IMG/VR virus record: IMGVR_UViG_2850784384_000005
Source: a virus
Lineage: Duplodnaviria > Heunggongvirae > Uroviricota > Caudoviricetes
Reading direction: 5' to 3' (one strand)
DNA length: 17,981 nucleotides
Below, piece by piece: positions 9,463 through 10,214 of this stretch (the first letter of the stretch is position 1; each line of letters starts with the position of its first letter). The notes under the pieces were generated by a model, which was not told the origin of the DNA, did not search any database, and worked only from the letters and a program-made list of their open reading frames with translations. The position numbers were made by a program, and so were the translations under genes.

Positions 9463-9624
9463 CTACTCTGCTAATTTGCTCAGCCCCATGTCTGCGTAAG
9501 TGCGATTTACTGCATTTCTCAGGTCTGCGTAGTTCTCCGTTGGCGGCTCCGGTGTGCCCTTGCTGCTCTGTTTTACCAGCGGGTCGCCCACCAGCCGCCC
9601 GTAAGCTGCAATTTGTGCTGTCAT
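9463..9624 (-). CDS. Hypothetical 53-aa protein (below the track's length cutoff)
   Basis: ATG at 9624 with a GAGGTGG Shine-Dalgarno, followed by a terminator. Translation: MTAQIAAYGRLVGDPLVKQSSKGTPEPPTENYADLRNAVNRTYADMGLSKLAE. Confidence 0.4.
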   Translation of the reverse strand: MTAQIAAYGRLVGDPLVKQSSKGTPEPPTENYADLRNAVNRTYADMGLSKLAE

Positions 9625-9633
9625 ATTGCCACC

Positions 9634-9939
9634 TCAGTGAAGCGATCCGGCATTGTTCTTTTTCATCTCTTCCATCATTTTTTCAGTGAGCATTACGCAC
9701 TGAAACCCCATGTTTTTGATGTCTACGGGTTTCATGCCTTTGTCAGTGGATATCACAGGCAGAATATCCTGATACACATCGCGGTCAGGGTAACTAAGCA
9801 CACAAAGCGCCCATGATGCCACGGGTGAGGATCCTTCGTCTGTTTCAACCCACCAGCCTGGTGTAGCTGCGCTTATTTGCAGAATCGTGATCCGTCCGTT
9901 GTGCTTGTAAAATTTTTCACCAAATTTTGGTTCGCTCAT
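9634..9939 (-). CDS. Hypothetical 101-aa protein
   Basis: GGAGAGGTGG ribosome-binding site; start overlaps the stop of the upstream 92-aa gene (ATGA coupling). Confidence 0.5.
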   Translation of the reverse strand: MSEPKFGEKFYKHNGRITILQISAATPGWWVETDEGSSPVASWALCVLSYPDRDVYQDILPVISTDKGMKPVDIKNMGFQCVMLTEKMMEEMKKNNAGSLH

Positions 9940-10214
9940 GATTCCACCTCTCCGGTTTTAACGTTGATTGTTGTTACCTGTTCCGCTTCGGCAATCTCCC
10001 GCTCTGTCAGCGTGGCAAAATTTGCCGCCGTCGTGGTCATGAATGCGCTTATCAGTTCGGGATGTGCTTTCGCGTATCCTTCCCCCGCGTGGCGGTCTAT
10101 CGTTCTGATTGCCACCTTTAAAGCGTGCTCTGTCATGTCTAACGCGCGATATTTCGGTTCTGTTCTGTCTCTGCGTTTTTTGAATGATTTATTAAATTTC
10201 CCTGAAGTGTGCAT
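9936..10214 (-). CDS. Hypothetical 92-aa protein, first gene after the origin
   Basis: GAGGGGG upstream of the ATG; coupled to the 101-aa gene. Confidence 0.45.
   Translation of the reverse strand: MHTSGKFNKSFKKRRDRTEPKYRALDMTEHALKVAIRTIDRHAGEGYAKAHPELISAFMTTTAANFATLTEREIAEAEQVTTINVKTGEVES

Follow-up and report, generated by a model that had tools for sequence, protein, structure and literature searches.

Three small open reading frames (ORFs) occupy positions 9463-10214 of the virus record IMGVR_UViG_2850784384_000005, a stretch of 17,981 nucleotides hereafter called the window, where they follow the replication origin (ori) of an element with the gene content of a capsid-forming phage-inducible chromosomal island (cf-PICI). 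We consider it likely that they form the distal end of the early, or replication, transcription unit of this island, in the order rgdR-primase-helicase-ori-ORF1-ORF2-ORF3-terminator, ORF1 belonging to the island backbone, ORF2 being a cassette and ORF3 a scar. The corresponding post-ori module of intact relatives reads ORF1-(ORF2)-ssb-(proQ)-perC/pchE. An earlier note on this DNA had taken the three ORFs for accessory genes and, by analogy with PICIs and Staphylococcus aureus pathogenicity islands (SaPIs), for candidate functions of interference with a helper phage.

Organization of the post-origin region

The replicase gene, the three ORFs and their terminator are all on the minus strand and surround or follow the origin:

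10503-12251, minus strand: primase-helicase (replicase; D5_N/DUF5906/Pox_D5), directly upstream of the ori and ORF1
10215-10502, no strand: replication origin with at least 12 iterons, between the primase stop (10503) and ORF1
9936-10214, minus strand: ORF1, 92 amino acids (aa), ATG start
9634-9939, minus strand: ORF2, 101 aa, ATG start
9463-9624, minus strand: ORF3, 53 aa, ATG start
9550-9554, minus strand: CACCG microhomology at a deletion junction, placed by blastn break points and codon comparison
9423-9440, minus strand: intrinsic terminator AGCCGGAGCAATCCGGCT with its T-run, just 3' of ORF3, found by consensus scan

The earlier note had placed ORFs of 92, 101 and 53 aa between the origin and the head module, and this arrangement was found, with the iteron ori upstream and the HK97-type capsid gene downstream. 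The start/stop overlap and the ribosome-binding sites (RBSs) that it had described were also seen. By sequence reading, the stop of ORF1 overlaps the start of ORF2 in an ATGA (9936-9939), GGAGAGGTGG constitutes the ORF2 RBS, 4 nt 5' of the ATG, and GAGGTGG, the RBS of ORF3, lies 4 nt 5' of its ATG and overlaps the ORF2 stop, the gap between ORF2 stop and ORF3 start being 9 nt. For ORF1, a GAGGGGG is found 11 nt 5' of the ATG, which is a longish and weaker spacing.

A repeat search found the iteron T(A/G)TCTACC at least 12 times, in both orientations, within 10215-10502. These iterons make up two inverted sets, with at least five TRTCTACC copies at 10263-10359 facing GGTAGAYA copies at 10383-10488, and an inverted layout of this kind fits the description of Gram-negative PICI origins (PMC6092414). 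Since a terminator scan found none between the primase stop (10503) and ORF1, the primase and ORF1-ORF2-ORF3 are probably cotranscribed as one unit, closed by the terminator at 9423-9440. A 37-aa ORF at 9362-9475 (minus strand), annotated as 'trigger factor' in RefSeq relatives, covers the terminator hairpin as well as the 3' end of ORF3; it matched no family and is probably a spurious call spread by annotation.

Conservation of ORF1 and ORF2 and origin of ORF3

On the evidence of sequence and gene order, ORF1 belongs to the conserved backbone of PICIs and is coupled in translation to ssb, the gene for the single-stranded DNA-binding protein (SSB), with any type of replicase and with or without a capsid of the island's own. 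Among 77 IMG/VR loci with an enterobacterial ORF1, about 70 showed ssb directly after it, the replicases being D5-type, RepA or DUF927; most of these loci carry a capsid-like gene of the type found in the island EcCICFT073, not an HK97-type capsid gene. ORF1 DNA was detected in 1303 of 5426 complete E. coli genomes (24%). Across 19 alleles, its ratio of nonsynonymous to synonymous polymorphism (pN/pS) was 0.24, with variation biased to the third codon positions of the minus-strand frame; by this measure ORF1 is under purifying selection and is more than a chance ORF.

The protein matched the profile of phrog_1231, a family of unknown function, over 81 of 83 positions (E 2.9e-51). A profile search collected 674 cluster representatives of the family, all without Pfam domains or informative names, in which the motif D-x3-G-x-GYAKxHPEL is invariant. 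Neither Pfam nor NCBIfam matched ORF1, and Pfam gave nothing above noise on six distant relatives. The AlphaFold2 model (40-sequence alignment, mean predicted local distance difference test score 79) consists of an acidic helical hairpin whose turn carries the conserved motif; residues 1-23 form a basic N-terminal tail (isoelectric point 11.1). Fold searches returned no informative match. A hit of profile A1 to transcription activator-like effectors in the PDB (E 4e-17) was rejected as a repeat-summing artefact, no individual stretch having passed.

Distant relatives of ORF1 lie between AlpA and a DUF927 helicase-primase in Nitrosomonas, downstream of an integrase and just upstream of a CHC2/Toprim primase in a Desulfobulbaceae metagenome-assembled genome, and between an HTH_17 gene and the gene of a 957-aa protein in Rhodomicrobium. 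Two further contexts, a prophage end and an IS/McrBC island (IS, insertion sequence), are less clear. The occurrence of distant ORF1-like genes just upstream of primases prompted an analogy with P4 Cnr and epsilon, which was dropped at an hhalign probability of at most 0.2%.

ORF2, as judged from its distribution, is an optional and PICI-restricted cassette. Its DNA was found in 81 of the 5426 E. coli genomes (1.5%), always at 95% identity or more, and an exhaustive HMMER search over 1.84 billion representative proteins yielded seven ORF2 proteins. It is absent from locus L002 and from the islands Sp7 and EcCICFT073. The protein matched all 104 positions of phrog_27268, likewise of unknown function (E 7.6e-70), and distant relatives (33-46% identity) keep the motif PGWW...SP(V/I)A(A/S)WALC...ILP...GM.P. 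No match was obtained with Pfam and NCBIfam, and Pfam gave nothing above noise on three relatives. The pN/pS of 0.27 over 13 alleles, with variation concentrated at third codon positions, indicates purifying selection and a status beyond that of a chance ORF.

The position of ORF2 relatives is constant across genera, first or second after the PICI replicase/ori in every case; those with 33-41% identity directly follow the ori in other cf-PICIs and in classical PICIs, where they precede ssb/proQ/perC. In cf-PICIs beside fis/dusB, the ORF2-like gene is followed by a 65-aa gene and then the capsid gene; in classical PICIs, it is followed, with or without ssb, by ProQ/FinO and then PerC. The gene between ORF2-like/ssb and perC encodes a ProQ/FinO RNA chaperone (PF04352, 83.8 bits) in loci L019, L040-L048 and L050, and an RNA chaperone of this kind thus seems to recur in post-ori modules. 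The ORF2 of the window lies precisely at the junction of ORF1 and ssb, between two imperfect 15-bp direct repeats (9621-9635 and 9936-9950, 12/15 identical; GAGGTGGCAATATGA and GAGGTGGAATCATGA on the coding strand) that comprise the RBS and the ATGA. This duplication of the RBS-ATGA junction identifies ORF2 as a cassette inserted at the coupling point of ORF1 and ssb.

In intact relatives, ORF1, or ORF2 where present, is followed by a 136-aa ssb and then by an 82-90-aa perC/pchE, and comparison with them identifies ORF3 as an in-frame scar. A deletion of about 505 bp between CACCG repeats joined ssb codon 25 to perC codon 54/55. By blastn, positions 9000-9554 and 9552-10190 of the window are collinear with two blocks of locus L003 lying about 505 bp apart, and L035 gives the same result. 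The junction codons are AAG GGC ACA CCG / GAG CCG, CACCG being common to ssb codons 24-25 (Sakai-type allele) and perC codons 53-54. The product consists of SSB residues 1-25 followed by the final 28-29 residues of PerC/PchE (PerC residues 54/55-82), the last 29 residues being 100% identical to the C-terminus of EcCICFT073 PerC.

Domain searches are in line with this composition. Residues 21-49 matched positions 50-77 of the 90 in PerC (PF06069) at 22.9 bits, for a cut-off of 22.6 bits, and residues 1-25 weakly matched the SSB family phrog_44 in PHROGs, with no Pfam match to SSB PF00436. The intact neighbours score 57.6 bits for SSB and 119 bits for PerC over positions 2-77. ORF3 is thus neither a member of the PerC family, whose full length is about 90 positions, nor of the SSB family; of the PerC/Pch family (PF06069, with PerC of enteropathogenic and PchA-E of enterohaemorrhagic E. 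coli) it holds a fragment fused to an SSB N-terminus. Because the oligonucleotide-binding (OB) fold of SSB and the N-terminal two-thirds of PerC (residues 1-53) are deleted, the ORF3 protein is probably non-functional, and it is an open frame because the deletion happened to stay in frame. The acidic C-terminal tip is gone as well, intact SSB relatives ending in DDPYGDGIPF.

The ORF3 junction was present in only 3 of the 5426 E. coli genomes; the exact 53-aa protein is encoded by at least 1000 contigs, whose listed sources include Shigella flexneri. The ORF1-ssb-perC stretch is deletion-prone: locus L028 shares the junction of the window, L022 (6150-6156) has an independent ssb-perC deletion, and a natural in-frame fusion ORF1(1-79)::SSB(14-136), P0137, was found on four contigs.

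These results bear differently on the claim of the earlier note that all three ORFs are real genes, which holds for ORF1 and ORF2 (pN/pS 0.24 and 0.27) and fails for ORF3. Clear homology to a housekeeping protein, which that note had named as speaking against its interpretation, was found for the 53-aa ORF in its SSB N-terminus fused to a PerC/PchE C-terminus. The remote homology searches and structure prediction that it had proposed gave the helical hairpin of ORF1 and the families phrog_1231 and phrog_27268, without assigning a function.

Identity and decay of the island

From its gene content and site, the element, which has phoQ and roxA as neighbours in annotated relatives, is a cf-PICI of the Sp7/OI-51/EcCIEDL933 type. 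Its genes run int, alpA, ..., DUF4222, primase, ori, small genes, HK97-type capsid, protease, portal, connectors, HNH, TerS and TerL. An integrase, AlpA and a primase with an adjacent iteron ori are present, together with the island's own HK97-type capsid and packaging module (major capsid protein (MCP), protease, portal, connectors, HNH, TerS, TerL), whose genes are 96-100% identical to those of locus L001. Between phoQ and int, no tail or lysis genes were found. As in cf-PICIs, which measure about 10-15 kb, the attachment (att) site is one unused by prophages, and without IS1 and IS4 the element measures about 15 kb. Apart from these two extra insertions, the window and Shigella flexneri SFBU1023 (L005) are 99.8% identical. 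The 1.6 kb around the three ORFs had matches in 1409 of the 5426 complete E. coli genomes, full-length in only 3. The other features considered here are as follows:

17004-17981: Phage_integrase domain match
16441-16629: Phage_AlpA domain match
14845-16270: IS4 (Nterm_IS4 and DDE_Tnp_1, 448-aa ORF), insertion relative to SFBU1023
12585-13349: IS1 (InsA/InsB), insertion relative to SFBU1023
12248-12547, minus strand: RgdR (counterpart of ECs1581), DUF4222, 99 aa, with R20-G21-D22 present
9419-9441 and 9056-9078: 23-bp direct repeat holding both identical terminator hairpins
9097-9321, minus strand: 74-aa gene (phrog_1957), a separate cassette, 95% identical to Sakai ECs1589
9060-9077, minus strand: second copy of the terminator hairpin, downstream of the 74-aa gene
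7642-8796, minus strand: HK97-type major capsid gene, with nonsense codon W276->TGA at 7969-7971
4198-4554, minus strand: terS, with premature stop E107->stop, 12 codons short of the end

Sp7 of the Sakai strain shares with the window the roxA/phoQ site and the succession int, alpA, ..., rgdR, primase, ori, ORF1 homologue (ECs1586, 89% identical), 74-aa gene, HK97-type capsid, protease, portal, connectors, HNH, TerS and TerL. Its post-ori order, ECs1586-ssb(ECs1587)-pchE(ECs1588)-ECs1589-MCP, has ssb and pchE intact and no ORF2. Relative to Sp7, the window has thus gained ORF2 and seen ssb-pchE collapse to the 53-aa fusion, and it carries IS1, IS4 and the capsid and terS nonsense codons. The order in L003 is hyp83-hyp104-SSB-PerC-hyp74-MCP. 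Sp7 corresponds to CP-933C/O-island 51 (OI-51) of E. coli O157:H7 EDL933 (PMC3378721), and EcCIEDL933 is the 15.4-kb prototype of cf-PICIs (10.1101/2022.09.08.507074); strain, size and gene content suggest that EcCIEDL933 and CP-933C/Sp7 are one element. Helper-dependent induction and transfer via helper tails have been shown for EcCIEDL933 only (10.1101/2022.09.08.507074). The classical Gram-negative PICI EcCICFT073 shares the att site and the order rgdR, primase, ori, ORF1 homologue (85 aa, 78% identical), ssb, perC; it differs in having neither a full packaging module nor ORF2, and in encoding RppA. Gram-negative PICIs are known to carry PerC variants (PMC6092414).

The copy in the window is decayed. 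The capsid W276->TGA is also found in SFBU1023; the terS stop is absent from it, and the N-terminal seven residues of terS are not alignable with relatives. Both IS elements lie in the regulatory left arm, from rgdR to alpA. The island is probably no longer able to make capsids, its packaging module being present but probably not functional. Strong selection on the post-ori module of this decayed element (capsid and terS nonsense codons, IS1, IS4) is likely gone. Since ORF1 and ORF2 are both short, their intactness in this copy carries little information, and the case for them as genes lies in the family-wide data.

The 23-bp direct repeat brackets the 74-aa gene, which is missing from many related islands; in L028, which lacks it, the flanks overlap by 23 bp (L028 3325-3347). 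Recombination between the two terminator copies apparently accounts for the loss, or the gain, of the cassette. The earlier note had listed this gene and the three ORFs as the only plausible accessory cargo. This does not hold, as the window also encodes RgdR, which in OI-51/Sp7 activates type III secretion by the enterocyte effacement locus (LEE) and modulates motility (PMC3378721). The RgdR of the window is only 69% identical to the allele of L001, otherwise the closest E. coli island. The description as accessory cargo is moreover wrong for ORF1, a backbone gene coupled to ssb and present in both Sp7/EcCIEDL933 and EcCICFT073; ORF2 is still a legitimate candidate.

Possible functions of the small genes

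If the three ORFs close the replication unit, transcription reading through the ori after AlpA-dependent induction would express ORF1-ORF3 along with the replication genes. ORF1, with its basic tail and dimer-prone hairpin, may then act with the island SSB or replisome, or in island gene regulation, and ORF2 would be accessory to this module and might be a small beta-barrel protein that binds nucleic acid or protein; neither would be a helper-interference factor. Such a replication or regulatory accessory role, assigned to ORF1 and ORF2 by association, is favoured because every recognisable gene of the equivalent module in related islands (SSB, ProQ/FinO, PerC) binds nucleic acid or regulates transcription.

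Helper interference would require that at least one of the three proteins bind a helper protein (TerS, capsid or late activator) and cut helper yield in the manner of SaPI Ppi/Cpm/Pti or PICI Rpp, which we regard as quite unlikely. The earlier note had argued for it from position only. Interference genes of SaPIs and, in EcCICFT073, RppA do occupy the post-ori region (PMC6092414, PMC6739421), and Ppi, CpmAB, PtiA/M and Rpp, as well as P4 Cnr and epsilon, are likewise small, replication-proximal satellite genes. A tblastn search of 50,697 GenBank phage genomes with ORF1 and ORF2 found no relative, so that both are satellite-specific and not phage-derived, and the patchy presence of ORF2 (81/5426 genomes) is accessory-like. 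However, EcCIEDL933, which bears the ORF1-ssb-pchE module (as Sp7), reportedly causes no drop in titre of its helpers HK106 and HK446 (10.1101/2022.09.08.507074), and when EcCICFT073 post-ori genes were expressed singly, only c1503/RppA inhibited lambda and phage 80, as far as the accessible part of that report goes (PMC6739421). ORF1 and ORF2 are unlike RppA: neither showed sequence or profile similarity to RppA, P4 Cnr (ORF106, DUF5375) or P4 epsilon (hhalign probability again at most 0.2%), and neither had a PDB match to the RppC entries. Searches of PDB chains with single sequences and with profiles gave nothing credible, the profile searches being the only, indirect comparison with SaPI proteins. 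PADLOC-DB returned no family at E up to 1 for ORF1, ORF2, ORF3, the 74-aa protein or three distant ORF2 relatives; in agreement with the earlier note, no recognisable defence enzyme was found by PADLOC, Pfam or NCBIfam. ORF3, for its part, is a deletion scar. The co-occurrence analysis across islands, which the same note had suggested, brought out the ORF1-ssb coupling and the fixed place of ORF2 after the ori, ORF1 being partnered with ssb and not with packaging genes. The interference reading of the small post-ori genes is therefore unsupported, with ORF2 as its main remaining possible candidate.

It is decidedly unlikely that ORF1, ORF2 or both are host-directed regulatory cargo that, like PerC/Pch and RgdR, tunes the transcription of host genes (virulence, motility), the module being retained because it serves the host. 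A PerC-family regulator is the final gene of the post-ori module, a PICI PerC-like protein represses LEE1 (PMC11773190), and deletion of OI-51 lowers LEE expression and colonisation (PMC3378721); the predicted helical hairpin and basic tail of ORF1 would also be compatible with a small DNA- or protein-binding co-regulator. Yet the OI-51 phenotype was traced to RgdR and not to post-ori genes (PMC3378721), and PMC11773190, citing Porter 2005, gives no LEE1 effect for the PerC-like proteins of EcCIEDL933 and EcCICFT073. In addition, Nitrosomonas, Beggiatoa and other bacteria that lack such virulence systems have ORF1 relatives, and PerC is truncated in this island. Finally, the decay of the island, with its capsid and terS nonsense codons, two IS insertions and ssb-perC deletion, and the certain status of ORF3 as a scar would fit a set of chance or decayed ORFs giving no functional protein at all. 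This is very improbable for the whole set, given that ORF1 and ORF2 have kept intact frames, at 98-100% identity to alleles of other islands, with family-wide purifying selection and a position conserved across genera.

Beyond the favoured role at the end of the replication unit, the ORF1 family could be an undescribed and widespread partner of satellite SSB and primase that might, for instance, load SSB or the host replisome onto the satellite ori or redirect them there, with ORF2 as a PICI-specific factor of the same step or for helper sensing or exploitation. We hold this extension to be unlikely; if true, it would bring to light a novel factor in satellite replication or in the exploitation of helpers, common to classical and capsid-forming PICIs.

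The biological weight of this window is low because it is a decayed, Shigella-type island, a further example of a known island type, and what interest it has comes chiefly from two uncharacterised, satellite-restricted families and from the almost universal coupling of ORF1 and ssb. In Gram-negative PICIs, the genes that can be recognised between the ori and the morphogenesis genes serve replication and regulation (ssb, proQ/finO, perC), in a region prone to small deletions; given that content, the SaPI analogy should not be used to label small genes found here as 'interference' genes. Two satellite-restricted families without phage homologues are thereby flagged, ORF1, coupled to ssb and present in about a quarter of E. 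coli genomes, and ORF2, which holds a fixed position across genera.
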